Positions 2,380 to 31,757 of a DNA stretch of 31,931 nt are shown piece after piece (position 1 is the first letter of the stretch; every line of letters begins with the position of its first letter). Source of the stretch: a virus (lineage: Duplodnaviria > Caudoviricetes); IMG/VR virus record IMGVR_UViG_3300005613_000266, positions 1 to 31,931 of that record; one strand, written 5' to 3'. Position numbers and translations under genes: made by a program. The notes under the pieces are model-generated. The model was not told the origin of the DNA, made no database searches, and saw nothing but the letters and a program-made list of their open reading frames with translations.

Positions 2380-2380
2380 A

Positions 2381-5289: not shown

Positions 5290-5377
5290 TGAAAGGAGTG
5301 AATATACAGCTATTACCGAGCAGTCCGGTAATGAAATACTAATTGTGACATTGGGAAACGAACGGGAGGTAGTCAAA

Positions 5378-5479
5378 ATGAACTTTACTCAGATTATTGG
5401 AACCATAGCAATATTTCTACTGATTGTGTCACTATTCACATTGTGGCTCTCATTGTTGATCCTGGGGTTGGCATTATGA
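5378..5479 (+). CDS. small membrane peptide (33 aa)
   Basis: GGGAGGT RBS; fully hydrophobic; ATGA overlap with the next gene. Confidence 0.55.
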   Translation: MNFTQIIGTIAIFLLIVSLFTLWLSLLILGLAL

Positions 5480-6339
5480 GTGAATATATTACCGAGCAAA
5501 CTGAGCGCAATGTGCTGACGTTAAAATTCGATGTTGCCAGTGATTGGCAGCAATGGATCATGCTCAGTAGTGATCATCACGTAGATAATCCAATGTGTCG
5601 GCGAGATTTATTGACTAGAGATTTGGAGAAAGCACAAGAGCGCGACGCGTTGATTTTCTTCTTTGGGGACACCTTCTGTGCAATGCAGGGGAAATACGAC
5701 AAACGATCGTCGATGGATGACATTCGGTCTGAAGATGTTGGTGAAGATTACTTAGATCGGATCGTTAATCACGCTGCGGAGTTATACAGCCCGTTTGTGG
5801 CCAACATTGCATTGATTACCAAAGGCAATCATGAGACGTCGATCCGCAAACGTCATGGCACAGATATAGTCAGCAGCCTTGTTACGTTGCTGAATATCAA
5901 CGCCAATGGTCACCGAGTGTATGAAGGCGGTTATGGTGGTTGGGTGAGGTTTCAATTCGCGGTGTACACACGGAAGATTTTGAGATCGTTGAAATATCAT
6001 CATGGCGCTGGTGGTGGGGGTCCAGTAACGCGTGGTGTGATCCAGACTAATAGACAAGCGGTTTATTTACCCGATGCGGATATTGTGGTCAATGGTCATA
6101 CGCATGATAGCTGGGTTGTTCCGATAGCGAGAGAGCGGTTGAACCGCAAAGGGCACGTTGCGCGTGATCTTGTTCATTTTGTGCGCACGCCGGCATATAA
6201 GGACGAATATCGGGATGACTATGGCGGTTTTCATACCGAGAAATGGGGACCTCCGAAGCCGCTTGGGTGCGTATGGTTGCATTTTTACTATGACAGTGCC
6301 GATGGGGTGAGGTTCGAGTTGATACCAGATGTAAGTTGA
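5476..6339 (+). CDS. calcineurin-like metallophosphoesterase
   Basis: SDHH, GD, GNHE, HG, GHTH motifs in canonical order. Confidence 0.85.
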   Translation: MSEYITEQTERNVLTLKFDVASDWQQWIMLSSDHHVDNPMCRRDLLTRDLEKAQERDALIFFFGDTFCAMQGKYDKRSSMDDIRSEDVGEDYLDRIVNHAAELYSPFVANIALITKGNHETSIRKRHGTDIVSSLVTLLNINANGHRVYEGGYGGWVRFQFAVYTRKILRSLKYHHGAGGGGPVTRGVIQTNRQAVYLPDADIVVNGHTHDSWVVPIARERLNRKGHVARDLVHFVRTPAYKDEYRDDYGGFHTEKWGPPKPLGCVWLHFYYDSADGVRFELIPDVS

Positions 6340-6350
6340 CTTGTGAGTTA

Positions 6351-6381
6351 AAAATAAAAAGTCCTCCAGCTGCGGAGGACT
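6351..6381 (-). terminator. intrinsic terminator of the minus-strand cassette (possibly bidirectional)
   Basis: agtcctcc-agctgc-ggaggact stem with an A-tract on its left (U-tract on the minus strand). Confidence 0.75.
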
Positions 6382-6401
6382 GATTGGTTGTGTTTGATGA
6401 T

Positions 6402-6836
6402 CTAATCTGATTTCCAGTTGGGATTTCCCACGGGGCGATCCAGCTTAGCGAACTCATCTAGGTCGCTTGATTTTATAAATAAGTCACGCCCCATCTTGCG
6501 GGCGGGTAGTTGATTGTTAATGATCAGTTGTCTTACTCGGCTGTCGGTAATACCGAGTCGCTTGGCTGCGTCTGCAGTTGTGATAATAAATTGATTCCAG
6601 GATGAATTAACATATTCAGTTAGTTGATTGTGGATGTATCTTGCATCGTAAATGTCATATTCAATTCCATATTCCTCATTGTCGTTGAGAAGATAATCTG
6701 TGATTTCATTGATGTATTCATCAGCGGTCAAGCCATCGTTGTGTGCATCTTCTGGTGTATATTGTAAACTCTGCCAGTAATCTCGCAGTGTGTTATTCAA
6801 TTCATTTATTCTATGTTCCCAGTTTTTTTCGTTCAT
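6402..6836 (-). CDS. acidic N-domain fused to a C-terminal excisionase-type HTH (HTH_17-like)
   Basis: ITTADAAKRLGITDSRVRQLI...LPARKMGRDLFI; AGGAG RBS before ATG 6836. Confidence 0.75.
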   Translation of the reverse strand: MNEKNWEHRINELNNTLRDYWQSLQYTPEDAHNDGLTADEYINEITDYLLNDNEEYGIEYDIYDARYIHNQLTEYVNSSWNQFIITTADAAKRLGITDSRVRQLIINNQLPARKMGRDLFIKSSDLDEFAKLDRPVGNPNWKSD

Positions 6837-6889
6837 TTCAAATTCTCCTGCCTGGTTTACCCGCCAGGCTCGGGGATAGGTGGGTAAAA

Positions 6890-7054
6890 TCATCCGCCAA
6901 TCCAATACCACTGAGCAGACAGCCATTCTAAAACTTGATCAGTGTTCATATCCTCGTCTAAATCATATATGTCTTTGATCTCTGAAATGGTAAGCCACCC
7001 AGTCGTTGTATTGTATTTCTTTTCAAGTTGATATTCTACTAATCTGGTATCCAT
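6890..7054 (-). CDS. small acidic hypothetical protein (54 aa)
   Basis: GAAAGGA RBS before MDTRLVEY; directly downstream of a strong promoter. Confidence 0.65.
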   Translation of the reverse strand: MDTRLVEYQLEKKYNTTTGWLTISEIKDIYDLDEDMNTDQVLEWLSAQWYWIGG

Positions 7055-7097
7055 TTTTATTCCTTTCATTTCAATCTGTTTGTTTATCGTTATACTG

Positions 7098-7127
7098 CTA
7101 TTATAACACATGCGTTATAATAGTCAA
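7098..7127 (-). promoter_or_regulatory. sigma70-type promoter overlapped by a 26-bp operator palindrome
   Basis: Minus strand TTGACT-16nt-TATAAT with an extended TG; CTATTATAAC-acatgc-GTTATAATAG palindrome at 7098-7123. Confidence 0.8.
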
Positions 7128-7559: not shown

Positions 7560-7838
7560 ATGGCAGAGGGCAATGGCAATCGAGAGTTAGGAGAGATTCA
7601 GGCGACATTGAAGCATATTTCCAACGATATTGGCGATATGCGATCGGACATAAAAGACCTTCGTGACAAAATTACCAATCACTGCATAGAGACGGAAAAT
7701 TTGAAATCGAGGGTCTTTGACCATGATAATGAGATAAATAATTTGCGTAAGAAGTCTGAACGCTGGGACATCGCCAACAGCATCGGAGCTAGTATGAGCG
7801 CAATTGTGGCGGGAGTGATCACCTGGCTGAAGACCTGA
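7560..7838 (+). CDS. coiled-coil protein with C-terminal TM (XhlA/holin-accessory-like)
   Basis: Heptad-rich N-terminus, single hydrophobic C-terminal helix, located in the lysis cassette. Confidence 0.6.
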   Translation: MAEGNGNRELGEIQATLKHISNDIGDMRSDIKDLRDKITNHCIETENLKSRVFDHDNEINNLRKKSERWDIANSIGASMSAIVAGVITWLKT

Positions 7839-8667: not shown

Positions 8668-9039
8668 ATGCCAGTATACGGAAACGCCAAAGGGAAATTG
8701 ATAACCGCGGATGACGTCATCAAGGCAATTGAGGATGCGCGCGGCTACGCATCCAAAGCCGCGGAACTGCTTGGCGTCGGGCGATCATCGTTCTATCGAT
8801 ATCTCCAGAAATTTACATCCGCACAGCAAGCGCTTGAGGACACACGCGAGAAACGTCACGACTACGTTGAAAACAAACTGATGAAATTGATCGATGAGGG
8901 CAATGTACCGGCGACTATATTCTATCTAAAAACTCAGTGCAAACACAGAGGCTATACCGAGCGGTACGAATACACCGGTGCGGACAACAAGCCCATAGAG
9001 ATCAAAACAATCGAGGTTATCAAGGACTATGGCACATGA
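8668..9039 (+). CDS. terS: terminase small subunit (HTH)
   Basis: AAELLGVGRSSFYRY HTH, ATIFYLKT..GY.E pattern, immediately upstream of the large subunit. Confidence 0.75.
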   Translation: MPVYGNAKGKLITADDVIKAIEDARGYASKAAELLGVGRSSFYRYLQKFTSAQQALEDTREKRHDYVENKLMKLIDEGNVPATIFYLKTQCKHRGYTERYEYTGADNKPIEIKTIEVIKDYGT

Positions 9040-10315
9040 CCTGGTTGAGATTGAGAACAACAAACTGCGGCTGCATCTTCACCCAGGACAAACGGCGGCG
9101 TGGGATGCAGATCAGCGGTTTGTTTTCGTTCTTGCGGGGACACAGAGCGGGAAAACTTCTTTTGGACCTTGGTGGTTAGAGCGTGAAATTAGGCGATGCG
9201 GTGATGGTGATTATTTGGCGGTAACTGCTACTTACGATCTATTCAAACTCAAAATGCTACCGGAGATGTTAACCGTGTTCGGTGGCTATCATCCAGGCTG
9301 GGAATACCACAAAACAGATCGTGTAATTCACAATGGCGACAAACGCATTATTTTGAGAGCCGCGACCAGCGAAGGCGGGTTGGAAAGTGCGACCGCTAAA
9401 GCCGCGTGGATTGACGAATGCGGGCAAGATGATTTTGGAATTGGCGCTTGGGAGGCAGTCTTGCGCAGATTATCACTAGAGCAGGGGCGCATATTAGGGA
9501 CAACGACGATTTACAATCTTGGGTGGTTATATACCGAGGTTTACAAACGTTGGACTGCGGGCGACCCAGATTATTTCATCAAGCAATTCGAGAGCATTAT
9601 GAATCCAGAATTCCCGAAAGAGGAATTCGAGCGCGCGCGGCGAACACTGCCAGCGTGGAAATTCGAGATGCAATATCGCGGGAATTTCTCCAGACCCGCG
9701 GGGATGATTTACGATGTATTCGATACTGAGAAACACGTTATAGCACCATTTACAATCCCAGATTGGTGGGCTCGATATGGTGGGATGGATTACGGAGGGG
9801 TGAATACGGCTGCGGTTTGCTATGCGGAAGATCCAGAGACAAAAGTATTGTACGCCATCAAAGAATACTTAGCGGGTGGCAAAACAGCGCGCGAACATGC
9901 GGAAGCATTGAAGCAATGGGGTTGCCGTCTGTGGGTTGGCGGCGCGCCGAGTGAAGATCAGTGGCGACTTGAATTTCAGCAAGCTGGACTGCCTGTGCGG
10001 GGACCAGAGATCAAAGAGGTTGAAGTTGGTATTGACCGGGTGTATGGCTGTCACAAGCGGGACGAAATCTATGTATTTGATACGTTGAGCCGCTATTTAG
10101 ACGAAAAGGGGCGCTATTCCAGGAAGCTGGACGACAGCGGTCAGCCGACGGAAGAGATCAAGGACAAAAACAGTTTTCACGTTATGGATGCGGAACGCTA
10201 TATTGTGGGATTCATTCGGGGGGGCTATACCGAGTTACCAGAGACACAGCCAACGATCCAAAGCAAGTGGGTTGATGATGATATCAGCGGAGAAAGCCGC
10301 TGGAAGAGGTATTGA
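9029..10315 (+). CDS. terL: terminase large subunit
   Basis: LHPGQ, Walker A AGTQSGKT, Walker B AWIDE, nuclease GMDYG...HVMDAERY. Confidence 0.93.
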   Translation: MAHDLVEIENNKLRLHLHPGQTAAWDADQRFVFVLAGTQSGKTSFGPWWLEREIRRCGDGDYLAVTATYDLFKLKMLPEMLTVFGGYHPGWEYHKTDRVIHNGDKRIILRAATSEGGLESATAKAAWIDECGQDDFGIGAWEAVLRRLSLEQGRILGTTTIYNLGWLYTEVYKRWTAGDPDYFIKQFESIMNPEFPKEEFERARRTLPAWKFEMQYRGNFSRPAGMIYDVFDTEKHVIAPFTIPDWWARYGGMDYGGVNTAAVCYAEDPETKVLYAIKEYLAGGKTAREHAEALKQWGCRLWVGGAPSEDQWRLEFQQAGLPVRGPEIKEVEVGIDRVYGCHKRDEIYVFDTLSRYLDEKGRYSRKLDDSGQPTEEIKDKNSFHVMDAERYIVGFIRGGYTELPETQPTIQSKWVDDDISGESRWKRY

Positions 10316-11709
10316 TTATGGCAGAACTAGGACGAACGGGACTGAGCGAGTGGTCAGGACAAATCCAGGAAGATTTTCTCAAGGAGCTTCACGGCAAGAA
10401 GGGATACAAAAAGTACAACGAAATGCGGATGAACTCTCCAGTCATCGGGGGAATGCTGCTGGCGATTGAGCAAGCGCTTCGAAAAATTACTTGGGATGTG
10501 ACCAGTGATGTTGAGGATGATCCGAGGATTGAGTTAGTCAATGATTCTTTGGAGAATATGAGCGCGTCGTTTAATGATCATATTACCGAGGCGTTGACGA
10601 TGCTGCCATTTGGATACTCGGTATTTGAGATTGTGTATGAGCGTATTGGTGCGCAAGTGTTGTGGCGTAAATTTGCCATTCGCGGGCAGGACACTGTATA
10701 TCAATGGCTGTTTGATAAGCAAGGTGGACTAGCGGGATTAGTACAAGTTGTCCAAACAAAGGCGTTTGATCCAGTGACGATCCCGATTGAGAAGCTGTTG
10801 TTGTACAGAACACGAGTTGAGAAAGGAAATCCCGAGGGTCGCTCAGTATTGCGCACAGCGTATATACCGTACTACTACTGGAAGAACATCAGCCAAATTG
10901 AAGCAATTGGGATTGAACGTGACTTGGCTGGACTGCCAATGATCAAATTACCGGTGAATGCGACCACAGACAGCGGATCGAGCAGCGACGCGAGCAAAGC
11001 CAATCAGTTAGTGCGCAATGTACGCAATGATGAACAGGCGGGGATTGTATTACCGAGCGACTGGGAGTTCGAGTTGGTATCAACGGGTGGTACACGTCAA
11101 TTTGACACAGATACAATTATTAGACGCTACGAAAGCCGCATGTTACTAAGCGGGCTTGCGCAGTTTCTGATGCTGGGACAAGACAAAGTGGGCTCATTGG
11201 CCTTATCTGAGGATCAAACAGATTTCTTCAATATGAGTGTGAATGCGACCGCGGATATCATCGCCGAGACGTTTACCAAATATGCAATACCGAGATTGTT
11301 GAAGCTCAATGGTATGGATGCGGATGGAATATCGTTACAACATACGCCGGCTGGCGATGTAGATATTATGGCAGTGGCAGACTTTTTGCAAAAGGTGGGT
11401 GCGAAGATCACATGGTTGCCGGAGGATGAAATCTGGCTACGCAGTTTGGCAAATCTCAATGATGTTGATACTGAACGGATTGAGGACGAACGCGAGCGCA
11501 ACGCTGAGCGAATGATGCAACTCAGACCGCAATTTCCGCAGCAACAGGATGATGACAATATGACTGCGCAATATTACCGAGCAACGCAGGGTAACAAGCC
11601 GCCGAATGATAATGAGCGGCGATTGAGTGAGAAACAGATCTATCGATTGGTAAATAGATTTTGGGAAGACCAGAAGAACAGAATACGACGTGGATTAAAG
11701 GAGACGTAA
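10312..11709 (+). CDS. portal protein (DUF935/Mu gp29-like)
   Basis: Follows terL; FGYSVFEIVY, NPEGRSVLR, GSLALSE motifs. Confidence 0.88.
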   Translation: MIMAELGRTGLSEWSGQIQEDFLKELHGKKGYKKYNEMRMNSPVIGGMLLAIEQALRKITWDVTSDVEDDPRIELVNDSLENMSASFNDHITEALTMLPFGYSVFEIVYERIGAQVLWRKFAIRGQDTVYQWLFDKQGGLAGLVQVVQTKAFDPVTIPIEKLLLYRTRVEKGNPEGRSVLRTAYIPYYYWKNISQIEAIGIERDLAGLPMIKLPVNATTDSGSSSDASKANQLVRNVRNDEQAGIVLPSDWEFELVSTGGTRQFDTDTIIRRYESRMLLSGLAQFLMLGQDKVGSLALSEDQTDFFNMSVNATADIIAETFTKYAIPRLLKLNGMDADGISLQHTPAGDVDIMAVADFLQKVGAKITWLPEDEIWLRSLANLNDVDTERIEDERERNAERMMQLRPQFPQQQDDDNMTAQYYRATQGNKPPNDNERRLSEKQIYRLVNRFWEDQKNRIRRGLKET

Positions 11710-11712
11710 AGG

Positions 11713-11793
11713 ATGACAAAGGTATTGGTAACAGGCAGCGAGGGATTAGTTGGAACGCCAACTGTTGATTTGTTAAAAATATCGGGATACTAA
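11713..11793 (+). pseudogene. 26-aa remnant of an NAD-dependent epimerase/dehydratase N-terminus
   Basis: MTKVLVTGSEGLVGTPTVDLLKISGY* contains the extended-SDR TGxxGxxG motif; TAATG-coupled to the next gene. Confidence 0.7.
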
Positions 11794-12413
11794 TGTATGA
11801 CAGCGTAGGCATTATCCCAGCAGCTGGTCGATCAGTGCGATTTGGAGGGTTATTGAAAGAGCTTCTTCCGGATCGCGACGGTGTGCCGTTGATAAAACGA
11901 ACAGTGCAGCAATTAGAACATGTGTGTACGGATATCGTGATTGTTACGAGTGAGTCAAAAATTACCGAGCATACAAAAGCGGTTGGTAACTGCGGTTGTC
12001 AGTTTCGAATACAGCGCCACGATACTGGACTATGGGGAGCGATATTGACAGCAATGGTTGTACCTGCGGAATATTACTATTTTATGATGCCTGACACGGT
12101 GGTTGAGGGAGAGTTTCCATATTACTTTAAAAACTTTGCCATGGGATTGCATCAAACAATGAAGCCGGAGCGATTTGGCGTTCTCCTCGGTGATCGGGTC
12201 GTCGATAAAGGCGCTGGAATTGATACACCTGCCAACGCATGGGGAACATTGGCATGGAGCGATACCGTAAAACGCAAATGGATGAATGAGAGCATAAACG
12301 ATCATACATTAGCAATCAATATGGCTATTCATAGTTATGGAGTGGAAATATTCCAATTGACTGAATACTATGACATGGCAAGTGTTGGAGATTATCGGGA
12401 GTATTTACGATGA
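11793..12413 (+). CDS. sugar-phosphate nucleotidyltransferase-like (RmlA/GalU fold)
   Basis: GIIPAAGRSVRFGG..KELLP, MPDT, RFGV, YYDMA. Confidence 0.8.
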   Translation: MYDSVGIIPAAGRSVRFGGLLKELLPDRDGVPLIKRTVQQLEHVCTDIVIVTSESKITEHTKAVGNCGCQFRIQRHDTGLWGAILTAMVVPAEYYYFMMPDTVVEGEFPYYFKNFAMGLHQTMKPERFGVLLGDRVVDKGAGIDTPANAWGTLAWSDTVKRKWMNESINDHTLAINMAIHSYGVEIFQLTEYYDMASVGDYREYLR

Positions 12414-13057
12414 CACCAGATCCGAGAGACCCATTGTTTTGGGACGAAGAACTAGCAAAAATGTTCAATCTGTTTGCTCCACGTGTAATTGGGTTATTGT
12501 TATCTGGTGGTCAGCAGGGTGTGGGTGAGTTGCCAGATGCAGCCGCGGTATTGATGAATTGGGATGTTTTCAATCAAAAGGCAATTGACTGGCTGCACAA
12601 CTACGGCGTAGGATGGCTGCGGGATATCAATGAGACCAGCCGAAATCAGGTTGTGAATGCAATTGACGATTTCATCAGGCAGGGTAAATCGATGCAGGCG
12701 TTGAAAAAAAACATTACTGAAATACTAGCGCCAACATACAGTAAAGCACGCGCAGAGATGTTAGCGGTTACCGAGGTAACGCGTATTTATGCGGAAGGGA
12801 ATCTGATGGCATGGAAATCAACAGGGGTAGTAACGAAGAAACGTTGGATGACAGCCAGAGATGAACGAGTGTGTCCAATTTGCGCGCCATTGGACGGAAT
12901 GATTGTTGATGTTGATAGCAATGGTTTTACTACTGAGGTTGGTGGATTAGGACTTAGTAGTCCTCCTGCTCATCCTAGGTGTAGATGTTGGCTAACGCCG
13001 GTAGTTGATGTTGCAGCAGCTGAGCGAAAGGTACGAGAGGCGATTGAAAACGCATGA
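12410..13057 (+). CDS. head morphogenesis / minor capsid protein (MuF, SPP1 gp7-like)
   Basis: RAEMLAVTE, KRWMTARDERVCPIC..LDG, PPAHPRCRC. Confidence 0.9.
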   Translation: MTPDPRDPLFWDEELAKMFNLFAPRVIGLLLSGGQQGVGELPDAAAVLMNWDVFNQKAIDWLHNYGVGWLRDINETSRNQVVNAIDDFIRQGKSMQALKKNITEILAPTYSKARAEMLAVTEVTRIYAEGNLMAWKSTGVVTKKRWMTARDERVCPICAPLDGMIVDVDSNGFTTEVGGLGLSSPPAHPRCRCWLTPVVDVAAAERKVREAIENA

Positions 13058-13533
13058 AAATTGAAGTTGAAGGGTTAGAGGAATTGCGAGCGCGATTTGC
13101 ACAATTTCCCAGACAATTCAATGCAGCGTTGCGCAGTACATTGATGGATTCGTTGAATGCCGTTTGGGAAAAAGTGTTGCCGTATCCGCCACGACCGGAA
13201 AGCAGCACGTATATAAGAACTGGTACACTCGGTAGATCGCTGGGCAGTTCCGAAAGCGGTGGACAAAGCGGCGGCAGACCAGGTATCTATCAGGTGAAAT
13301 CTCAAGGCACAAAGGCAATGTTCGGTGAATTCGGGACAAATCTTGAATACGCGCCATATGTCATTGGGGATAGGGAAACGGTTGAAGGCGAAAAGGGACA
13401 GACAAAAACTCATCGTAAGAATGGGTGGTGGACATTGACTGAGATTGGAGAGAGAGCGGTGCCAAAAATACAGCAGTTATTTGAAGGCATGGCGCGCCAA
13501 TTAGCACAGTGGTTGGATGGGCAGCGGCTATGA
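13054..13533 (+). CDS. HK97 gp10 / Mu gpG-like neck protein
   Basis: IEVEGLEEL, RTGTLGRS, GTNLEYAPYV. Confidence 0.75.
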   Translation: MKIEVEGLEELRARFAQFPRQFNAALRSTLMDSLNAVWEKVLPYPPRPESSTYIRTGTLGRSLGSSESGGQSGGRPGIYQVKSQGTKAMFGEFGTNLEYAPYVIGDRETVEGEKGQTKTHRKNGWWTLTEIGERAVPKIQQLFEGMARQLAQWLDGQRL

Positions 13534-13904
13534 ACGGTAGTAACGGTAATGGTAAAAATCATAGACGATATCATATTATTGAATATCGCTGTTATTCGTG
13601 TGGGCGATTGCTGTTTCGCTCGGTAATGAGTGAAGGGACAAAGATAGAAATTCGATGTCCAGGGTGCGGTATTATGAATGTGTTTCCAGTACCATCATAT
13701 AATAAGAATGATCCCAAACAGGTAAAAAAACGAGTTGAGGTAGAAGAAATCGATCCGAATGAATACAGTGCTAATGATTTTAGGAAATTAGTTACTCGAC
13801 TAGGTAATTTGCCCGATAATTTGATTAGTGATATGATTGTGATGGAACAGAACGGCAAAAACCGTTCAAGTGTTATGAAAGCAATTGCGCGCTTGCAAAA
13901 ATAG
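13530..13904 (+). CDS. Mu Com-family zinc-finger RNA-binding regulator with C-terminal helical extension
   Basis: EYRCYSCGRLLFR..KIEIRCPGCG matches the Com pattern RCxxCxxLL..IEIRCPxC; ATGA overlap start. Confidence 0.75.
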   Translation: MNGSNGNGKNHRRYHIIEYRCYSCGRLLFRSVMSEGTKIEIRCPGCGIMNVFPVPSYNKNDPKQVKKRVEVEEIDPNEYSANDFRKLVTRLGNLPDNLISDMIVMEQNGKNRSSVMKAIARLQK

Positions 13905-13931
13905 CAAGAATGTGCTAATATTATATATAAT
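13893..13931 (+). promoter_or_regulatory. candidate promoter for the capsid operon
   Basis: TTGCAA-17nt-TAATAT with TG, or the alternative TATAAT at 13926-13931. Confidence 0.45.
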
Positions 13932-13942
13932 TGAATAAGCCT

Positions 13943-14014
13943 GAGCGCCATTGAGCGCCTGTGCGAAACCTGTTTTTAGCTTCGGCTAAACTCTCGAGCG
14001 CCATTGAGCGCCTG
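13943..14014 (+). promoter_or_regulatory. two 19-nt direct repeats GAGCGCCATTGAGCGCCTG flanking a C(UUCG)G hairpin; putative Com-binding sites
   Basis: Exact copies at 13943-13961 and 13996-14014; tttagc-ttcg-gctaaa at 13975-13990. Confidence 0.75.
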
Positions 14015-14057
14015 GAAAGATCAACACATGTGGTTGGTTTATCCAGGTGCTTTTTTT
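14006..14057 (+). terminator. intrinsic terminator/attenuator in the capsid operon leader
   Basis: agcgcctgga...tccaggtgct stem extended by agatcaac/gttggttt, followed by T7. Confidence 0.75.
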
Positions 14058-14077
14058 GTTAATCAATTCGGAGGGTT

Positions 14078-15067: not shown

Positions 15068-15069
15068 AG

Positions 15070-15456
15070 ATGGCTATTTTCGCAAAATATGATTCCATCC
15101 CTGGATTAGTTGCAACAGCAACATTAGCATCGAAACAATATTATATAGTACAGGCGTCTAGCACCGCGGGCGAAGTGAAGCAGGCTGATACTGCTGCGAC
15201 GGATCCAATACTCGGTATTGTGCAAAACGATCCGGCAGCGGCTGAAATTGCGGATGTCGCATTCCAGGGAATTGCTAAAGCTGCGGCTGAAACTGGCGTA
15301 AGCTATGGAGACAGCTTGACCGTCTCTTCGACTGGTAGAGTTAAAACAACTACTACTGATGGCGATCGCATTGTAGGAATTGCATTACAGGCAACGACCG
15401 CAGCTGGGGACATTATCCCAGTATTAATGAGTTTACACGCTGGATATTGGGCGTAG
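15070..15456 (+). CDS. capsid decoration/cement protein (DUF2190-like)
   Basis: Ala/Thr/Gly-rich 128 aa with VGIALQA..AAGDIIPV, between scaffold and capsid. Confidence 0.75.
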   Translation: MAIFAKYDSIPGLVATATLASKQYYIVQASSTAGEVKQADTAATDPILGIVQNDPAAAEIADVAFQGIAKAAAETGVSYGDSLTVSSTGRVKTTTTDGDRIVGIALQATTAAGDIIPVLMSLHAGYWA

Positions 15457-15468
15457 TAGGAGGAAATT

Positions 15469-22900: not shown

Positions 22901-23440
22901 ATGAAAACAATGACGATAAGAAGCGACAGTTACGGATCAACAACTGAGGTACTGGCATTCACGCGTCATCTGATGGATGGGCAGACTACATTTAATAGTA
23001 CTACACGTCCCACAAATACTGAGGTTGAGAAATTCATCGATCGGGCGAGCGGTGCGCTGAATGTGGCATTGAACAACTGGGGGATGACAACGCCAGTGAC
23101 AAACACAACGGCTAAGTTAGTCTTGGATGAATGGGTTGTATCAAAAGTTACCGAGCATGTGGAATTGACGCAGCGTGGCGTTGGATATTCGGAAGCCGAA
23201 GGATCGAGATATATTGGATTTCGGAATCTACATCAGGCAGCGCATGATTTTGTAAAGACAAATGCGCTCGGTATGAAACGATTGGGCGTCGGAATAAGTG
23301 CACAGTTGAATCAGGGTATGACATTTACGGGACTGGACGCACAGGATGACCGCGCGGATCCGGATGATACCAGTCTGGAGCAGCCGTTATTCGCTCGGCG
23401 ATTGTTTGATAATAATAACGATGAGGATGACGACCAATGA
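22901..23440 (+). CDS. head-tail adaptor protein
   Basis: Position; Y.S..EV, TRPT..EVEKFI..AS..LN pattern; start 22901 or 22910. Confidence 0.6.
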   Translation: MKTMTIRSDSYGSTTEVLAFTRHLMDGQTTFNSTTRPTNTEVEKFIDRASGALNVALNNWGMTTPVTNTTAKLVLDEWVVSKVTEHVELTQRGVGYSEAEGSRYIGFRNLHQAAHDFVKTNALGMKRLGVGISAQLNQGMTFTGLDAQDDRADPDDTSLEQPLFARRLFDNNNDEDDDQ

Positions 23441-23880
23441 GTTACTCCACCGGAGAAGCATTGTTGCTAACGCGTGTACAGGTGTGCACTGGATTTGATT
23501 CGAACAATACCAGCCGGTGTAATTGGAAGATATTGAACAAGGGTAAGTCGGATCACTACGCAATACTGAGACCTGGGGCGTTCAATATCGAATGGCACGC
23601 GTTGTCTGCGTATACCGCCAATTGGACAACAGTTGTTGAAGTGTGGCAAAGATACAAAGACGATACCACATCGCAGACAAATCTATATGGTCATATCACC
23701 AATTTGATGGCAATTATGGCATATCCATATTTAGGTGATGATACAACGGTTGTGGATAGTTCAATCGAAGGTGCGGATGAGCCGGAAGAGATGTGGACAC
23801 AAGGCGGGGGTCCCGGATGGATACGCTGGAAACTGCGGGTGATATGGCAGGAACAAACGGAGGTAACGTTCAGTGAATAA
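23437..23880 (+). CDS. tail terminator / completion protein
   Basis: 147 aa, located between adaptor and tube. Confidence 0.5.
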   Translation: MSYSTGEALLLTRVQVCTGFDSNNTSRCNWKILNKGKSDHYAILRPGAFNIEWHALSAYTANWTTVVEVWQRYKDDTTSQTNLYGHITNLMAIMAYPYLGDDTTVVDSSIEGADEPEEMWTQGGGPGWIRWKLRVIWQEQTEVTFSE

Positions 23881-24199
23881 ATCAGATGAGATCAAGCGAT
23901 TGCAAGAGAAAATCAAATGGCACGAAAGCCGTGGGAGATATGTAGGAACGTATGAACACGCACGGCTAGAACAAATAATCAATAGTGAATTGAAAGAATC
24001 GGAGGTAAACGATGGCAAATCTAACATGGAAATCAATGGCGCTGAAGATCGACGACAACACGGGGTCGTTGACGACAGTAACGAATTGGGTGAACAGCGC
24101 GAGTCTAGAGGGAGCGATGGAGACGTTGGAGGACACAAGTCTAAACGACGAGGAACACAGCTACCTAAGCGGACTAGCGGGGGCGACGATCCCGATTAA
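23873..24199 (+). CDS. hypothetical protein overlapping the tail tube gene
   Basis: GGAGGT RBS before GTG; first ~46 codons fill an otherwise empty gap. Confidence 0.35.
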   Translation: MNKSDEIKRLQEKIKWHESRGRYVGTYEHARLEQIINSELKESEVNDGKSNMEINGAEDRRQHGVVDDSNELGEQRESRGSDGDVGGHKSKRRGTQLPKRTSGGDDPD

Positions 24200-24419
24200 T
24201 GGGTGGGTGAATACCACTACTGAGGGTATCTTTGGACCGCTGGTTGGGAATAGAACTACAGCGACCAAAACGGTTGAGTTCTACAATGGCGTGAAGTACT
24301 ACAATGGCGAGGTCTGGGTTACCGAGGTTTCGTTCTCGGGTGATGCGGGATCACTGCAGACATTCAGCGCCAATTGCACATTTGACGGGGCAGTAACACG
24401 TACTAGCACATCATCATAG
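24012..24419 (+). CDS. major tail tube protein
   Basis: ETLEDTSLND...YLSGL..., YNGEVWVTE, TFSA..FDGAVT; GGAGGT RBS. Confidence 0.8.
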   Translation: MANLTWKSMALKIDDNTGSLTTVTNWVNSASLEGAMETLEDTSLNDEEHSYLSGLAGATIPINGWVNTTTEGIFGPLVGNRTTATKTVEFYNGVKYYNGEVWVTEVSFSGDAGSLQTFSANCTFDGAVTRTSTSS

Positions 24420-24434
24420 GAAAGGTGGTAATTC

Positions 24435-24722
24435 TTGGAATTCAAGCAGGGTAAATCAAGTTTTACTGTACCGGATGAGCCGACTGTAAGGCAAATATTG
24501 CGCTATGACAGCGTGATTGAAAGTAAAGCTGAGTTGGAACTATACGAACGGCTCTGGGCTGGCTGCTGTGTGATTGCGCAAAATTGGAAATCTGACAAAG
24601 TGGAATTGAGCGCGGACGCGTTGGATCAGAAGCTAAGCGCGGATGCACTTGAGATCATCAAATGGGCGAGTTTGGCAGCGTTTAGCTATGTTTTACAGAT
24701 CAAAAAAGTGCCAAAAAACTAA
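24435..24722 (+). CDS. tail assembly chaperone G
   Basis: Between tube and tape measure; ends in the slippery CCA AAA AAC TAA. Confidence 0.75.
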   Translation: MEFKQGKSSFTVPDEPTVRQILRYDSVIESKAELELYERLWAGCCVIAQNWKSDKVELSADALDQKLSADALEIIKWASLAAFSYVLQIKKVPKN

Positions 24723-24988
24723 TCGAGCGGGCGGTAGGCTGTGCGGAACGCGGAGAGACGCCGCCGCCTGCGCTCGAAATGGCGTGGAGATGTGAGCGAT
24801 GGAATGCCTTACCGGACGGCGGCGGATTGTATGATCAGGAATATAGGTTACTGAGCAGCATGGGTATATTGTCGAATGTATACAATACAGTTGTGCGGGT
24901 ACGAAATATGAAAGGAGATCAAATTCACAATCTGAGCGATGGCGAGCGCAGAATACTGAGAAATTTGATTAACGAGGAATTGATGTAA
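24719..24988 (+). CDS. tail assembly chaperone GT extension via -1 frameshift
   Basis: The -1 frame is open from A_AAA_AAC (24713-24719) through LIERAVG...MAWRCERW to the TAATG of the tape measure. Confidence 0.75.
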   Translation, partial: LIERAVGCAERGETPPPALEMAWRCERWNALPDGGGLYDQEYRLLSSMGILSNVYNTVVRVRNMKGDQIHNLSDGERRILRNLINEELM

Positions 24989-27924
24989 TGGCTGATGTAA
25001 AGATCAGGATAGTTGGCGAAGATCACGCGAGTGCGGAGCTAGATAAGATTGGCAACAAGGTCAGTACATTTACCAAAGAACTCGGTAAAATGGCTGCTGG
25101 ATTCGCAGCCGCTGGATTAGCGTCTAAGGAAATATTTGAGTTTGGGGAAATGGGCGCGCAGGCAATACAGACCGCGGAATCGTTTGACATTCTGTTGGGG
25201 AAGGTTGGCGCTGCACCTGATTTGCTGAGTCAATTGAAATCCGCGAGTAAGGGCACAATTAGCGAATTGGAATTAATGAGTTCAACCTCATTGTTGCTTG
25301 CGGGAACATCAGGTGAGTTAGCTACCGAGTTGGCTAATTCGACGCCGCGTCTATTGGAAATTGCGAAAGCTGCAAATAAACTCAATCCAAGTTTGGGTGA
25401 TACCACATTCATGTATGATAGTTTGTCTCGTGGTATTAAGCGTGCATCGCCATTGATATTGGATAATTTAGGGCTAGTTGTTTCGGTAGGTGATGCGAAT
25501 GCAAAATATGCCGAATCTATCGGGAAAACAGTTGAAGAACTGACCGCTGAAGAAGAAAAAATTGCTCTGTTAAATTCGGTATTAGAACAAGGTGATACAC
25601 TGATCGACCAAGTTGGTGGGACGACTGATAGCACCACTGATTCATTCGCTCGGATGAATGTAGCAATTGAAGAATCTAAAACAGCATTGCAAGAATCGTT
25701 AACACCCATGTTGGCAGAAGCTGCTGAGGCAATTGCTACATTACTCACGTGGAACGACAAACTTAAAGCATCTTTAGATGAACATAGAACTGAGATACAA
25801 AGCACGGCTAAGTCGTATGATGAATACCGAGTCGAGATGGAACGAGCCGCTGAGGCAGCTGGATTCTTCGTGGATGAACAAGGTAATTTAGTTGATATGA
25901 TCACGACTGCATCGGGGCGTCCGATGGAGAAGATCATTGAAGAAACCTATTTATTATCTGAGGCTGAGTGGGAAGCAAAGGAAAATATCGAGGGTGCGAG
26001 TGAGGCTGTTGGAGATCAAATTGCGGCGTATGAACGAGGCAGAGAAAGCACGCGTGATTATGCAGAAGAAGCTAACAACTTGGCTAAGGTACTCGAGGAA
26101 GGATTAGCGGCTGGCATCAAAGGCGAACTAAAAGACGCGCTGGACAACTACAGTGAAAAAATGCGATCGCTGCAAGATGAAAATCAAGAGTTGCATGACA
26201 AGATTGTAGATTTGATTGTTGATGGTATTGATCCAGCGAGTGATACCGTAGCGGAATTATCCAAACAAATTGATGACAACACACGTGAACAATCCGAGTT
26301 AGCAGAACAGTTGCAACTGACGACTAGAGAAATGGTTTATCAACGAGCGGCTGCGGATTTGGACACAGAAGCAGCGTTGGAATTAGCGCGTGCGATGGAT
26401 TTGATTTCTGAGGCAGATTACGAGTTAGCGTCTGCAATTCAGGATGTGCGTAATGAATTCGATCTCAACGCTGATGGAATGATCGATGCTACCGAAGCGG
26501 CGAATGGATACAATCAATCGATTCTAGATGTAACTACCAGCGCATTAGATGGGTTACCTACATTAGAGGAACAAAATCTAGCGTTAGAAACATATGCTAC
26601 TAATACTGATACTGCATCTGATGCAGCCGAACGATTGACACAAATTCAGAGTGCATTGAGCGCAGGTTTATCAGGAGAACTCAACCAATCGATGAGCGAC
26701 TACCATCAAACGCTCAGAGATCTGCATGACGAAAATGAAGAACTGCAATTCAAGATCGATGGTATCCAACAAGCATCCGATGAATATAAGGAATTGAATA
26801 AACAGCTTGATGGCTATACCGAGAGAAATGAAGCCGTATTCGCCGATAATGAAATAATTGTTAGAATGAATGAGCTCTACAGTAATGGCGTAGAGACTTC
26901 GGCAGAAGAATTAGAAAAACTCAATCGGCAACTTGACGATAATAAACAAAAACAAGAGGCAGCGCGTGATGCTATGCGGGAATCAATCGCGCAAATGATC
27001 TACCAACAGGCAGCCAGCGGTTTGAGTGCAGACGCGTCACTAGAATTGGCGCGCGGCATGGGACTAGTATCTGAACAGGATTACGCAGTAGCAGCGGCTA
27101 TTGAACAATTGCGGGATGCCTATGATACCAATAACGATAGCCAAATAGATGCTACTGAGGGCGCGTATGATTACGCAAGACAAATTAAAGAACTTAATGA
27201 TCGAGTTCTGCAATTACAAGGCGCTAATGAAAATATCACATTAGCAACGTTGGGATATAACGATAGCCTTGGAACTGCGAATCAATCATTGCTAGGCATG
27301 ACAAGAGAAACGCAAGCGACTATTGAGGAAGTTGACGCATTGCAGTTATCGCATGAGAATCTTAACCTTGAAATCGATAACACTACTGATGCAAACGAAC
27401 GATTTGTAGACTATACAGGCAACGTAAATGATGGATTAGAAGCAGAAACGACAGCGTTGGAAATATTGACTGATGGTTTGGGTCAAAATAAAGAATCAGT
27501 TAAACAATTGAATGATGCGATAGTTATATTGACGGACAATTATGAAGCCAATAAATTAGCGCTTGCGCAATTGAATATTGTATTAGCAATGAGTGATACC
27601 TATTATGCTGAAGCGTACAAAGAGGCTGGTAATTATACAGATGGGTTGCATAAATTGTTAAAAGTCGTTCGAGCATTACAGGCTGAAGGAGTGGACGTGG
27701 GCGGCAGCGTAACACTCGGTAATGGGAGTATCGATAGATTTGGCAAAAACTACTATCCGGAACAAAGTCAAGTTGGCAGCCGTGGATATAACTACAGTGG
27801 TACCACCACCAGTGGCAGCAGTGTGACGCTGAATTACTATCCGTTGATATCCACTATGGATGAAGAACGAGCTATGAATACATTGTTACCAATAGTTGAG
27901 GATGCGTTAAGGCAGTTACGATAA
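24988..27924 (+). CDS. tape measure protein
   Basis: 978 aa, helical and Ala/Glu-rich; VKIRIVGED.AS start; SPLILDNLG motif; follows the chaperones. Confidence 0.9.
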   Translation: MADVKIRIVGEDHASAELDKIGNKVSTFTKELGKMAAGFAAAGLASKEIFEFGEMGAQAIQTAESFDILLGKVGAAPDLLSQLKSASKGTISELELMSSTSLLLAGTSGELATELANSTPRLLEIAKAANKLNPSLGDTTFMYDSLSRGIKRASPLILDNLGLVVSVGDANAKYAESIGKTVEELTAEEEKIALLNSVLEQGDTLIDQVGGTTDSTTDSFARMNVAIEESKTALQESLTPMLAEAAEAIATLLTWNDKLKASLDEHRTEIQSTAKSYDEYRVEMERAAEAAGFFVDEQGNLVDMITTASGRPMEKIIEETYLLSEAEWEAKENIEGASEAVGDQIAAYERGRESTRDYAEEANNLAKVLEEGLAAGIKGELKDALDNYSEKMRSLQDENQELHDKIVDLIVDGIDPASDTVAELSKQIDDNTREQSELAEQLQLTTREMVYQRAAADLDTEAALELARAMDLISEADYELASAIQDVRNEFDLNADGMIDATEAANGYNQSILDVTTSALDGLPTLEEQNLALETYATNTDTASDAAERLTQIQSALSAGLSGELNQSMSDYHQTLRDLHDENEELQFKIDGIQQASDEYKELNKQLDGYTERNEAVFADNEIIVRMNELYSNGVETSAEELEKLNRQLDDNKQKQEAARDAMRESIAQMIYQQAASGLSADASLELARGMGLVSEQDYAVAAAIEQLRDAYDTNNDSQIDATEGAYDYARQIKELNDRVLQLQGANENITLATLGYNDSLGTANQSLLGMTRETQATIEEVDALQLSHENLNLEIDNTTDANERFVDYTGNVNDGLEAETTALEILTDGLGQNKESVKQLNDAIVILTDNYEANKLALAQLNIVLAMSDTYYAEAYKEAGNYTDGLHKLLKVVRALQAEGVDVGGSVTLGNGSIDRFGKNYYPEQSQVGSRGYNYSGTTTSGSSVTLNYYPLISTMDEERAMNTLLPIVEDALRQLR

Positions 27925-29432
27925 TGGCGAGATATTCGAAATTCGCTTATAACAGTGGCACAAAATACGGTACATCAGCTGCGAGTAATACTCTATCGGT
28001 AGCGCTGGAAATCGATTGGGATAATGATGGTGTATGGAATGGCTCGAGTGAAGATGAGTGGTTACAATCTATTCAAATTAAGCGCGGTAGACGCTATATG
28101 ATTCAGGAGGAAGGCGAAGATTTTGAAGATGTAATAGTTGGTAACGCGTTGTTTGTATTGAATAACAATGATGGTCGTTATTCTACGGACAATGAGGATA
28201 GTGCTTTATATCCGAATGTATTACCAGGAAGAGTCTGCAAGTTGCGTATTAAAAACAATAGCGACGGCGAATTATACTCGGTATTCTATGGGTACATCAA
28301 AGACATTCGTCCGTTCTATGAAGGATTCAACAAAGTAAGAATTACTGTTGACGATGGAATGCAGTTTTTGAAGCAGCGATCGATTACAACAACATTGTAT
28401 ACTGATGAGAAAGTTGAGGATCTATTCACTTATATCCTTGATGACTATGCAGGTTGGACAGATGGATACAGTATTGGGAATGACGAGGAGACTATTCCGT
28501 ATTGGTGGGAATACGACAAAATTAAAGCCTTGACATCATTACGAAAATTAACTCATGCCTACGTAGGCAAAATGTTTATTGATGCGAGTGGTCAATTTGT
28601 TTATTATTCACGTAATTATGATCCAAGCAGCTCTGCTAATATCACTAGTACAGATATTCAACGCAATTTTGGGGCATCGCAACCATGGGATTTCATTAGA
28701 AATAAAATTGAGGTAATAGCACATCCACGGAAATTAAATAATGATGTAACAATTTGGGAATTGAATGATACGCCATTGATAGAAGCAGGGGAGAGTTTGG
28801 AAATATGGGCTGATTATTCATATGATGGTAAAACTGTACCTGCAATTGATGTAATATCGCCAGTGGCAACAACCGACTATACAATGAATGCTCAGGCGGA
28901 TGGAGGGGGCTCAAATCTAACAGCTAATTTTACAGTCACACCGACAAAATTTGCGTCATCAACGAAATTGGAAATAGAGAATACTGGTGGTACAGATGGA
29001 TATATTACGTTTATGCAATTACGTGGTGATGCTCTCTCAGAATATCCGACAACGATTAAGCGGGAGGACTCATCGTCCATTAGCACTTACGGTGAGCGAG
29101 CATTCACGTTAGATTATGACTCGGTACAGGAAATTGATATTGCAATCGACTTTGCCAATTATCTTCGTACATTGCTGGCATCACCAAAGAAATGGTTAGA
29201 TATTACGATTATCGGAAAGCCAGATAAGCAATTATTAGAATTATTCGATCTTGTCTCGGTAATTGTGAATGAGTATATTAGTGGTGATTATTGGGTTGCA
29301 TATTTAGAACACGATTGGAATATTCAGAATGCGCATAATATTATTACTAGAATGAGGTTAGAACAAAAAGACGAAACAGCGTTCTGGACATTCACGGCGC
29401 AGGTTGGTGATAGCACGAGGTTTACATACTAA
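27924..29432 (+). CDS. tail tip / hub protein
   Basis: After the TMP; IKRGR, LNNNDGRY, FIDASGQFVY, SISTYGER, LELFDLV hub-like motifs. Confidence 0.7.
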   Translation: MARYSKFAYNSGTKYGTSAASNTLSVALEIDWDNDGVWNGSSEDEWLQSIQIKRGRRYMIQEEGEDFEDVIVGNALFVLNNNDGRYSTDNEDSALYPNVLPGRVCKLRIKNNSDGELYSVFYGYIKDIRPFYEGFNKVRITVDDGMQFLKQRSITTTLYTDEKVEDLFTYILDDYAGWTDGYSIGNDEETIPYWWEYDKIKALTSLRKLTHAYVGKMFIDASGQFVYYSRNYDPSSSANITSTDIQRNFGASQPWDFIRNKIEVIAHPRKLNNDVTIWELNDTPLIEAGESLEIWADYSYDGKTVPAIDVISPVATTDYTMNAQADGGGSNLTANFTVTPTKFASSTKLEIENTGGTDGYITFMQLRGDALSEYPTTIKREDSSSISTYGERAFTLDYDSVQEIDIAIDFANYLRTLLASPKKWLDITIIGKPDKQLLELFDLVSVIVNEYISGDYWVAYLEHDWNIQNAHNIITRMRLEQKDETAFWTFTAQVGDSTRFTY

Positions 29433-30226
29433 TGACATTTACAACAGTACCTACGGTAGTAGTTGGCGATTTATGGGATGAGGATGATTTTAACACTTAT
29501 CTTAGAGATAATTTTGCTGCATCTGTACCGGACATATTCACTACGAAGGGTGATATTGCTGTTGGCACAGGTTCAAAGGCGCTTAGCAGATTGGGGGTAG
29601 GCAATGATGGAGAAATCCTAATTGCAGATAGTGGCGAAATCACAGGGATGAAATGGTCAAAGGGTAAAGTAGAAATTGGGATGATTATCATCTGGTCTGG
29701 AGCGGTAGGATCAGTACCAACGGGTTGGCAGATATGTGACGGTACGAATGGCACACCGGATTTGAGAGATCGATTTGTTGCAGGCGCGGGTGATAGCTAT
29801 GCGGTAGATGCTACGGGTGGAGCGACTACAATTGATATACGGCATAGGCATGATATTAGCAGTAACATAAGTACAGAGCAACACAGGCATCATATAACTG
29901 GTACATTTCAAGATTATACTGATTACAACTACGAAAGCGCCCATTCCCATAGTATAAGCAGTCCATTGGTTTCATCTGCACCGACTGCAGTGGGCAATAA
30001 ATTGCATTCTGGTGTAAATGGTTCAATAGCGCCATCAGATCATACTCATACAATATCGAATTTCAGTTGTTATCCACAGGGAACGCACAGCCATTCCGTA
30101 GATTTATATACAGGTTATGCATCATCTCATTCGCACACGTTTGGATATAGTAACTATTCCCTATCTTCAACACAAAGCATTTTACCTAAGTACTATGCAC
30201 TTTGCTTTATTCAGAGGGTAAGTTAA
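29432..30226 (+). CDS. tail fibre protein 1 (collar domain + HxH repeats)
   Basis: IGMIIIWSG..VPTGWQICDGTNGTPDLRDRFV; HxH repeats; PKYYALCFIQR. Confidence 0.8.
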   Translation: MTFTTVPTVVVGDLWDEDDFNTYLRDNFAASVPDIFTTKGDIAVGTGSKALSRLGVGNDGEILIADSGEITGMKWSKGKVEIGMIIIWSGAVGSVPTGWQICDGTNGTPDLRDRFVAGAGDSYAVDATGGATTIDIRHRHDISSNISTEQHRHHITGTFQDYTDYNYESAHSHSISSPLVSSAPTAVGNKLHSGVNGSIAPSDHTHTISNFSCYPQGTHSHSVDLYTGYASSHSHTFGYSNYSLSSTQSILPKYYALCFIQRVS

Positions 30227-30984
30227 TGAGCTACACAGTTATTACCGAGAAATCAACTGACGATACTTGGACAGCACGTGAAAACAATGAGCTAAGAAAT
30301 AATTTCGAGGCAGGAATTGGATTAGTTTCATCAAAAGGCGATTTACTGATTGCATCAGCAGAGGACACGGCAGTAAAATTAAGTATCGGTTCTGATGATG
30401 AAATGCTAGTCAGCAACAGCAGTGAACAAGGCGGACGCGAATGGGTTGGTAGTGGATTAGTGCCTATAGGTGGAATAGTTATTTGGTCAGGGAGTGAGGG
30501 GAGCATCCCGACGGGCTGGCAGATTTGCGACGGGAGCAACGGGACGCCTAATCTGCAGGATCGGTTTGTGGTGGGGAGCGGCGATGATTATACGACTGAT
30601 GACACGGGCGGGCAGACGACGGTCGACTTGGAGCACGATCATGATTATGCTGCGGAGACGAGCGAAGATGGATCACATAGTCATACTATAGCAGCTTTAT
30701 CTGGTGGCACGCATTCGCATACTGTTGGGGTTACGAATGAGATAGCATCAGGTGATCTTGCTCCTGTACAAACAGGCACGGATTTAATTAGTGAACATAC
30801 ACATACATTTAGTGGAAGTGGGAGTACAGATACCGATGGCTCACATACACATCCTGGCAGGAGTGTCAGCGATGGAGAACATACGCATACCATGAATGAT
30901 AGTCAAACAGACAATCAATTATCATCAAGTCAAGATATACGACCACCTTACTATGCACTTTGTTATATACAGAGGTTAACATGA
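30226..30984 (+). CDS. tail fibre protein 2 (collar domain + HxH repeats)
   Basis: Paralog of fibre 1; TAATG coupling. Confidence 0.8.
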   Translation: MSYTVITEKSTDDTWTARENNELRNNFEAGIGLVSSKGDLLIASAEDTAVKLSIGSDDEMLVSNSSEQGGREWVGSGLVPIGGIVIWSGSEGSIPTGWQICDGSNGTPNLQDRFVVGSGDDYTTDDTGGQTTVDLEHDHDYAAETSEDGSHSHTIAALSGGTHSHTVGVTNEIASGDLAPVQTGTDLISEHTHTFSGSGSTDTDGSHTHPGRSVSDGEHTHTMNDSQTDNQLSSSQDIRPPYYALCYIQRLT

Positions 30985-31757
30985 GTTATACAGCAGTACC
31001 AACTGTATCTAACGATGATGACATTAGCGCCAGTTGGTGGAATACATATGTAAGAAACAATTTTGAATCAGGTATCCCAGCAATATTTTCTGACAAGGGC
31101 GATATCGCAGTAGCGAGTGCAGCGAATGCAGCAACTACATTGGCAGCTGGTACAAATACACAATGTATTGAAGCTGACAGTGGGGAAGGGGCAGGCATAA
31201 AAAACAGTTGGAATTTTGTGCCAGTTGGAGGCATCATCATGTGGGGCGGCGATTTGGGGGATTTACCGAGCAACTGGCAATTATGCAACGGAACAAATGG
31301 AACGCCAGATTTAAGAAATCGGTTCGTAATTGGAGCCGGAAATAATTACAGTGTGGGGAATACAGGCGGAGCAGAAAGCATCAATTTAGCACATGATCAT
31401 GAGAGTTCAGGAACAGCAGGAACGTCATCTACGGTAGGCGGATCTCATAGTCATACATTATCGGGAAATACTGGCGCTGGGTCCTCACATAGGCATCAAG
31501 ATGAAACTAGTACATATGCACCAGATGATACTTCATATGATCTGGATTTAGGTTATCCATATATCAATACTCCAGAAAGTCATTATCATTATGTCTACAC
31601 AGATTATGAAAGCAGTCATGTGCATAGCGTGCCAACGCCAGCAAGCGCTAGTGATTCTCACGATCACACTATTGGGTTCGATGGCAACGAATTGAGTAGT
31701 ACACAAGACATTCGCCCGCAGTACTACGCATTAGCATTTATTATGAGATTAAGTTAG
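30981..31757 (+). CDS. tail fibre protein 3 (collar domain + HxH repeats)
   Basis: Paralog of fibre 1; ATGA coupling. Confidence 0.8.
   Translation: MSYTAVPTVSNDDDISASWWNTYVRNNFESGIPAIFSDKGDIAVASAANAATTLAAGTNTQCIEADSGEGAGIKNSWNFVPVGGIIMWGGDLGDLPSNWQLCNGTNGTPDLRNRFVIGAGNNYSVGNTGGAESINLAHDHESSGTAGTSSTVGGSHSHTLSGNTGAGSSHRHQDETSTYAPDDTSYDLDLGYPYINTPESHYHYVYTDYESSHVHSVPTPASASDSHDHTIGFDGNELSSTQDIRPQYYALAFIMRLS

Follow-up and report, generated by a model that had tools for sequence, protein, structure and literature searches.

We found that the heptamer TACCGAG, together with its variant TACTGAG, forms a selected signal that is evenly spread over both strands of a tailed-phage fragment. The fragment, here called the window, is the complete virus record IMGVR_UViG_3300005613_000266, with 31,931 bases and 44% GC. 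The feature is solid and is replicated in an unrelated phage. As its most probable mechanism we infer, tentatively, that the sites may be the start sites of a phage primase encoded in the missing part of the genome.

TACCGAG is the top-ranked 7-mer of the window. The array spans positions 5314 to 31270, with 33 copies on the plus strand and 17 on the minus strand, which appear as CTCGGTA. Every start position listed in an earlier reading made from the letters (the sequence-only reading) is exact. The strong over-representation that it reported is also confirmed, as the 50 copies compare with 2.5 expected under a second-order Markov model and 3 to 5 under codon-preserving shuffles. Forty-eight copies are located within open reading frames (ORFs), while those at 5314 and 8629 are outside the ORFs used. 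Within-gene synonymous shuffles of 44 ORFs predict 3.4 sense and 1.3 antisense copies, where 30 and 18 are observed; the highest counts in 1000 such shuffles were 10 and 7, respectively. For the core genes, a pooled codon shuffle gives 3.3 copies versus 48. The word is read in every frame, as had been claimed, and the six frame and orientation combinations are all present (17, 7, 6 and 9, 1, 8). TACCGAG uses 48 of the 129 opportunities that silent changes offer in the core (37%), compared with 1 of 67, 0 of 63, 2 of 24 and 2 of 35 for four control words. The sequence-only reading had proposed a selected DNA-level signal and expected it to disappear under a codon-preserving null if wrong. The enrichment persists under this null, which supports a DNA-level signal kept against codon choice.

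The density of the word is one TACCGAG per 0.53 kilobases (kb), or 1.57 per kb within the phage. A 7-base site is expected by chance once per about 13 kb in the window. The orientation bias is mild (33:17, P 0.03; opportunities used, 31 of 63 versus 17 of 66, P 0.007). Whole-word and phenomenon searches did not find TACCGAG or its complement in relevant publications, in a partial coverage with few subscription journals and no supplements that does not show absence from print.

The word has a second form. TACTGAG occurs in 16 copies between 1048 and 27159, 11 on the plus and five on the minus strand, and 15 of them lie right of position 5000. With TACCGAG sites masked, 14 copies in ORFs compare with 1.9 expected (z 8.8). 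The remaining 20 one-mismatch variants are at chance level, with a sum of 37 versus 39.9, which indicates that all seven positions count. Because TACTGAG alone is enriched among the 21 variants, the true word is TACYGAG, with C preferred. This corrects the earlier view that one-mismatch variants are merely occasional. The count of A or T as the 5’ neighbor in 44 of 50 copies was right, but this base is not part of the word, since in the second phage described below it is C in 10 of 17 sites. The capsid gene contains two copies of TACTGAG and none of TACCGAG, because it offers only two silent opportunities for the latter.

Spacing analysis revealed that the sites are more even than expected. 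The mean gap is 530 base pairs (bp), and per strand it is 811 bp on the plus and 1296 bp on the minus strand. Gaps are evener than under a uniform null (coefficient of variation, CV, 0.71, P 0.007-0.008) and under a null that draws on silent opportunities (CV 0.69, P 0.003), with two gaps shorter than 100 bp versus 7.2 expected. Same-strand neighbors closer than 100 bp are absent from the window (0 versus 5.1, P 0.005). Opposite-strand neighbors within this distance number two versus 4.3 (P 0.20), the pairs being 31 and 33 bp apart. A separate spacing of sites on each strand is suggestive only.

Few relatives of the window carry the word. We gathered 199 related loci by searches with the capsid, terminase, portal and phosphoesterase, 139 of which are at least 8 kb long; no close named phage was found. 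Only two of the 199, L310 and L469, are enriched in the word. The other 197 contain 192 copies versus 199.9 expected in 2.5 megabases (Mb). L310, a sister strain that shares 96-99.7% identity with the window at positions 4700-9879, has nine TACCGAG in 4.4 kb versus 0.4 expected. It lacks a 780-bp accessory stretch on the minus strand (6340..7121), which in the window has one site (6551) and contains a small ORF and an HTH_17 (helix-turn-helix, HTH) gene at 6402-6926. The HTH protein, proposed earlier as a reader of the word, is thus missing from a strain that has the word. A small plus-strand gene in the lysis region (7560..7838) has no site in the window. At this position L310 has a divergent 151-bp allele, with 76 of 151 bases identical, that contains two sites. 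The word therefore belongs to a wider gene pool.

The second phage, L469 (record G1140), was recovered by protein search and not by pattern. It measures 15,798 bp with 58% GC and is an estimated 38% complete. It contains 17 TACCGAG (eight and nine per strand) versus 1.7 expected, and four TACTGAG versus 1.1. The next base 3’ to the word is C in 15 of the 17 sites, and the preceding base, C in 10, is never G. The spacing is even here as well (CV 0.50, P 0.005), with per-strand mean gaps of 1603 and 1698 bp. Same-strand pairs closer than 400 bp number one versus 5.7 (P 0.014) and opposite-strand pairs five versus 6.1. The terminase, portal, protease and capsid of this phage, with portal and protease of HK97 type, are of other families than those of the window. 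The sole strong protein link between the two phages is the metallophosphoesterase (5443..6339, plus strand; 58%), and weak matches are found in head-morphogenesis and tape-measure proteins. Sites in the two phosphoesterase genes are located at different codons, and were therefore gained independently in the two phages. Loci with closer phosphoesterases (63-66%) have no excess of the word. In addition, avoidance of restriction-type words differs, CATG being avoided in G1140 and GAWTC in the window, which suggests that the two phages have different hosts.

Pattern scans of viruses, each of which picks up an estimated 3-20% of genomes like that of the window, added no further phage. A direct-triple pattern returned tandem repeats, in at least 120 loci, 40 of them with short flanks only. 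A divergent-pair pattern returned 111 loci, 31 with short flanks, and none was enriched. A mixed-triple pattern returned two, of which G406 was rejected with 22 copies versus 13.6 expected. L157 was also rejected: although 16 copies occur in its 11.5 kb, three of them are in tandem and TACCGAG does not rank among its top eight 7-mers.

The distribution defines what a reader of the word would need to do. It would act at a site found at regular intervals and in both orientations, and would be strict at six of seven positions. It would be common to phages with unrelated structural genes and missing from their capsid kin. Of the readings considered, a primase would match these needs best. It would read the template strand 5’-CTC(G/A)GTA-3’ and, without copying the final A, begin primers as pppAC(C/U)GAG. 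Chance alone supplies too few 7-base sites, and selection would therefore write them in, one into each strand every 0.8-1.7 kb. Gaps of this scale per strand are those of Okazaki fragments. The primase gene would sit in a shared, exchangeable replication module, and the word would therefore follow neither capsid nor terminase kinship. Replication modules do vary among the relatives: G409 has DnaB and a replisome organiser, and L314 a D5-type primase-helicase family protein, in a scan for replication and modification genes that covered 62 of 81 listed ORFs.

The putative template ends in GT plus one base, as T7/T4-type pppAC priming demands, a fit at the level of the letters. According to parts of two papers (PMC2910064, PMC4488733), T7 primase makes pppAC at 5’-GTC-3’ (expanded TGGTC/GGGTC/GTGTC) and T4 primase makes pppACNNN at 5’-GTT-3’, and the last base of the site is required and not copied. 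The primase-polymerase of NrS-1 is described in the cited part of PMC8718748 as using an 8-base site, 5’-TTTGGTTA-3’, and also 5’-GTG-3’. The word resembles the sites of these three systems in that GT and one further base close one of its strands, which would template pppAC. The tolerated position would be the third primer base, and the site would be read on a single strand. Unlike the T7 and T4 sites, the word has seven fixed bases and forms a selected, even, genome-wide array, known here from sequence. If the sites are indeed those of a primase, a map of lagging-strand priming is written into the genes by a 7-base, T7/T4-like site, and the word is a fingerprint of a replication module, connecting phages whose structural genes have no relation. 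The proposal also specifies the very oligonucleotide that could be tried in vitro.

Several observations weigh against a primase. The pppAC fit is post hoc, and we estimate that about one 7-mer in eight fits by chance. T7 and T4 primases read a three-base core, compared with the seven fixed bases of the word. No family match to a primase or other replication gene was found in the window or among 12 proteins of G1140, both of which are fragments. L314 has the D5-type protein but no TACCGAG excess. Strand-specificity is marginal: when strand labels are permuted over both phages, P is 0.038 for a distance of 145 bp but 0.08-0.17 for 200-400 bp, and of the four single-strand TACCGAG series only one is evenly spaced by itself at P<0.05. 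At least 5.3 kb at the left end has no site, and the longest gap on the plus strand is 3.4 kb. Orientations are mixed along the entire contig, without the switch expected from a single origin. Finally, another word, ACGGCCGT, is host-derived within the same capsid family.

The last point leads to the explanation that we regard as unlikely, though less so than those that follow it. TACCGAG could be the hyper-abundant signature of an unsampled host lineage, similar to HIP or uptake sequences, adopted by both phages. This would account for a word common to two phages with unrelated head genes, and ACGGCCGT provides a precedent. We found 5,706 copies of this control word in the 4.1-Mb genome G634 (class of G002), at a density like that of the window's word. 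In capsid relatives, ACGGCCGT occurs 16 times in 13.3 kb of L025 versus 0.5 expected and 21 times in 43 kb of G409 (L052/L053), and is also in excess in L036. Host words therefore pass to phages of this capsid family. The ACGGCCGT-rich genome is one of 201 sampled, with none among the first 121 of the phylum draw, so a genome sample can miss a small lineage. HIP1, alternate cyanobacterial HIPs and ACGGCCGT resemble the window's word in having about one copy per gene in all codon frames, with a 10- to 20-fold excess (PMC5861425, PMC4390886, cited parts). Selection on HIP1 is argued in a part of PMC5861425. Unlike HIP1, TACCGAG/CTCGGTA is non-palindromic.

Control and word differ in spacing. Unlike TACCGAG, ACGGCCGT shows no even spacing, either in its host or in the two phages examined (CV 0.85-1.0, P 0.30-0.66). 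One-mismatch neighbors of TACCGAG are not depleted, which also argues against a host word. Moreover, the GC contents of the two phages are 44 and 58% and they avoid different restriction sites, so that a host lineage common to both would have to be broad. If the word is host-derived after all, it would be a non-palindromic counterpart of HIP1 or a first Chi candidate for this group of bacteria, and it could serve to assign hosts to uncultured phages.

No chromosome rich in the word was found among those searched. Weak hints point to a Chloroflexota host: homologs of the holin-like protein occur in three of 151 genomes in the class of an Anaerolineae-labelled genome, and one of the contigs also has a head-morphogenesis homolog. 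We counted the word in 1,131 distinct genomes, 23 of them unpublished, comprising 401 from the class of G001, 401 from the phylum of G002 and 401 from the class of G002, overlaps included. Because genomes in the class of G001 measure 1.0-4.4 Mb and this class is perhaps not Anaerolineae, the class of G002 was searched too. The W-extended form of TACCGAG was used for the phylum of G002. None of these 1,131 Chloroflexota-group genomes is enriched, the top density being 0.29 per kb with a Markov ratio near 1, and the host of the window phage was not identified. In samples of 15-100 kb from 13 higher-ranked genomes, the Markov ratio is at most 1.5 in 12; the 20-kb sample of the other, G829, is filled with repeats and uninformative. 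Genomes with few TACCGAG are TA-poor rather than word-avoiding.

A scan of metagenomes for triple sites returned 81 loci and no cellular contig with a dispersed TACCGAG excess, in a collection that may omit records very close to the genome of the window. For an assembled 4-Mb host, about 2.9 hits are expected if the word is as dense as in the phage, and 0.4 or 0.05 if it has half or a quarter of that density. Loci with high counts were rejected as local repeat clusters shorter than 1.5 kb or conserved gyrA codons. One locus, L263, has seven sites in 3 kb, three of which were chosen by the search pattern. A prophage search with the phosphoesterase gave none in 296 genomes. No CRISPR spacer was found by a short-match search of 105 genome-derived loci, in which one 30-base match lies within a terminase homolog.

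Other words and repeats were observed in the same material. Private words of related phages include AGCCGAC in L035 (11 versus 0.5), AACGATA in L511 and L515 (17 versus 2.1 in L515), CTGCCGC in L540 (12 versus 0.9) and CCGCGCC in L039 (58 versus 13); the first three are not evenly spaced. In the Chloroflexota-group genome G603 (L596-L599), ACGGCGA occurs 102 times versus 18.9 in 80 kb, mainly as CGACGGCGAC, and would be another hyper-abundant word or a repeat. The 20 kb of L578 (G829:C1:1-20000) contain 226-458 copies each of a few 7-mers, repeats that resemble a very long CRISPR-like array. At L236:10001-10402 and its near-copies L244, L252, L256, L278 and L281, eight clustered TTATACCGAG repeats adjoin three tandem integrase-like ORFs. 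These repeats resemble what we take to be the ends of a recombinase-trio element.

A Chi-like site is a somewhat less probable explanation than a host signature, and we consider it improbable. The word would be recognized by the break-repair helicase-nuclease of the host, be mildly frequent in the host, and be gathered by phages without their own recombinase. It resembles the Chi of phages LLS, MD8 and P1 in being a short, non-palindromic, intragenic word that arises convergently in unrelated phages. In the cited parts of PMC12315714 and PMC3784561, recombinase-less and Chi-rich lambdoid phages accumulate Chi but not in the vicinity of modules gained recently, similar to the absence of the word from the likely recently acquired left arm of the window. 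The mild orientation bias of the window would also fit. However, Chi-rich phages have one dominant orientation, with counts of 20:3 in LLS and 32:0 in MD8 (PMC12315714, in part), whereas both orientations of TACCGAG are at least 9-fold enriched, with 33:17 in the window and 8:9 in G1140. One site per 0.53 kb compares with one per 1.86 kb in Chi-rich phages in the same source, about 3.5 times denser than in LLS, and the sites are evenly spread rather than clustered at one end. In Chi-rich phages Chi is denser than in the host. For TACCGAG, no host with an excess was found among the genomes searched. The observed/expected ratio of Chi is about 2.3 in its hosts (PMC3784561, in part), higher than in the 12 genomes sampled above. 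G829, the single complete chromosome checked, shows no strand clustering among its first 100 forward sites.

We give a similarly low probability to a phage mark. A methyltransferase, base-modifying enzyme or DNA-binding protein of the phage could mark or coat the genome at TACYGAG and create a lattice that tags it as self. Sites on both strands, even coverage and strict 7-base specificity with one tolerated position are consistent with this, and the evenness of the combined strands is the strongest spacing result. DNA-modifying genes are present in the gene pool, with a TET-associated glycosyltransferase and an MT-A70 methyltransferase in the capsid relative G409 (L328:1939-2796 and L324:14080-15141) and a Mom-family gene in a related phage (L466:9949-10641). 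The gene for the writer, too, may be located in sequence that the fragment lacks. A mobile, unseen phage gene of this kind might move between unrelated Chloroflexota phages, which seems just as improbable; each new genome would be driven to rewrite codons until it has a site every 0.5-1 kb, a type of self-recognition not described for phages.

The visible candidates for such a mark do not track the word, neither the HTH gene, the ParB-methyltransferase, the glycosyltransferases nor the phosphoesterase. The sequence-only reading had suggested the ParB-HTH-methyltransferase (347..1615, plus strand) as a reader. This proposal is not supported, as the gene lies in the site-free arm, contains no TACCGAG and belongs to a common family with 2,358 proteins at E<=1e-20. 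The cluster of glycosyltransferase and methyltransferase genes is not likely to be the writer of the word. Two genes of the cluster were found in 61 and 25 related loci, and the five best loci of each have no word excess. In addition, the opposite-strand sites 31 and 33 bp apart show no mutual avoidance, which a lattice coating double-stranded DNA would suggest.

Programmed nick sites or stoperator-like repressor sites, both raised earlier, are very unlikely. The word superficially resembles the tf nick site 5’-TACT/RTGMC-3’, which is also phage-private and short, starts with TAC(C/T) and has a main and a minor form, but the tf sites are on one strand only, 14 in 46 kb (PMC3517423, in part), and the two phages here have 33:17 and 8:9. 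Programmed nick sites of the T5, tf and phiKMV types all occupy one strand. Both of these systems need one orientation, whereas both orientations are enriched here, the antisense form 14-fold (18 versus 1.3 in ORFs). Stoperators are longer sequences, oriented with transcription.

A functionless by-product of mutation, from biased repair or methylation-driven conversion, is equally hard to credit: such a model was proposed for HIP1 (PMC4390886, in part) and TACTGAG could arise when a methylated C is deaminated, but the other 20 one-mismatch neighbors are not depleted, TACCAAG, the decay product of the opposite-strand C, is at chance, the change to TACTGAG alters the amino acid in seven of 15 ORF copies (by frame), and mutation alone yields no even spacing. 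We place the word outside the Chi, HIP, nick and stoperator families, since for each of them a defining test fails, and regard it as a short recognition site gathered genome-wide by a phage.

The left arm of the window (1..5313) has no TACCGAG. Its ORFs have 39% GC versus 45%, and none of 13 silent opportunities is used (P 0.002 at the rate of the core, 0.05 at that of the second phage). The arm is likely a recently acquired module. Its genes encode the ParB-HTH-methyltransferase with an N6/N4 methyltransferase domain, a DUF559 nuclease, an M23 endolysin and a Lar-like protein. The first gene and the following one, for a 160-residue protein that is similar to HsdR N-terminal nuclease domains in a low-confidence model, span 347-2097 and possibly form a methyltransferase-nuclease cassette. 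M23 endolysin paralogs are present at 2942-3682 and 7875-8618, with DNA about 71% identical and the word only in the right copy. This pair suggests either that a related phage donated the left arm or that the assembly is chimeric left of position 4700.

To the right of the arm are genes for the metallophosphoesterase, a holin-like protein, the second M23 endolysin, terminase, a Mu-like portal and protease, capsid, the glycosyltransferase cluster and the tail. No integrase, replication or recombination genes are among the window genes, and no tRNA or Rfam matches were found in it. The minus-strand stretch at 6340-7121 that is missing in the sister strain has a promoter-like site at 7127-7100 and a terminator-like hairpin at 6360-6381, and we call it a moron-like insertion by resemblance. 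Strong avoidance in the window of GGCC (8 versus about 52-66 expected), GANTC, TTAA and CCGG likely reflects host restriction sites.

The head module (8668..16419, plus strand) contains the terminase, Mu-like portal, head-morphogenesis, protease, decoration and major capsid genes. An NTP-transferase gene (11793-12413) and a gene for a Com-like zinc-ribbon protein (13509-13904) are also located within it. Right behind the capsid gene, six to seven glycosyltransferase and methyltransferase genes form the cluster at 16967..22290 (plus strand), whose position suggests virion glycosylation. The head-tail, tail tube, tape measure and tail-fibre genes (22901..31757, plus strand) are all within the array. 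The last of these, at 29432-31757, are three tandem paralogous tail-fibre genes with a C-terminal end common to all.

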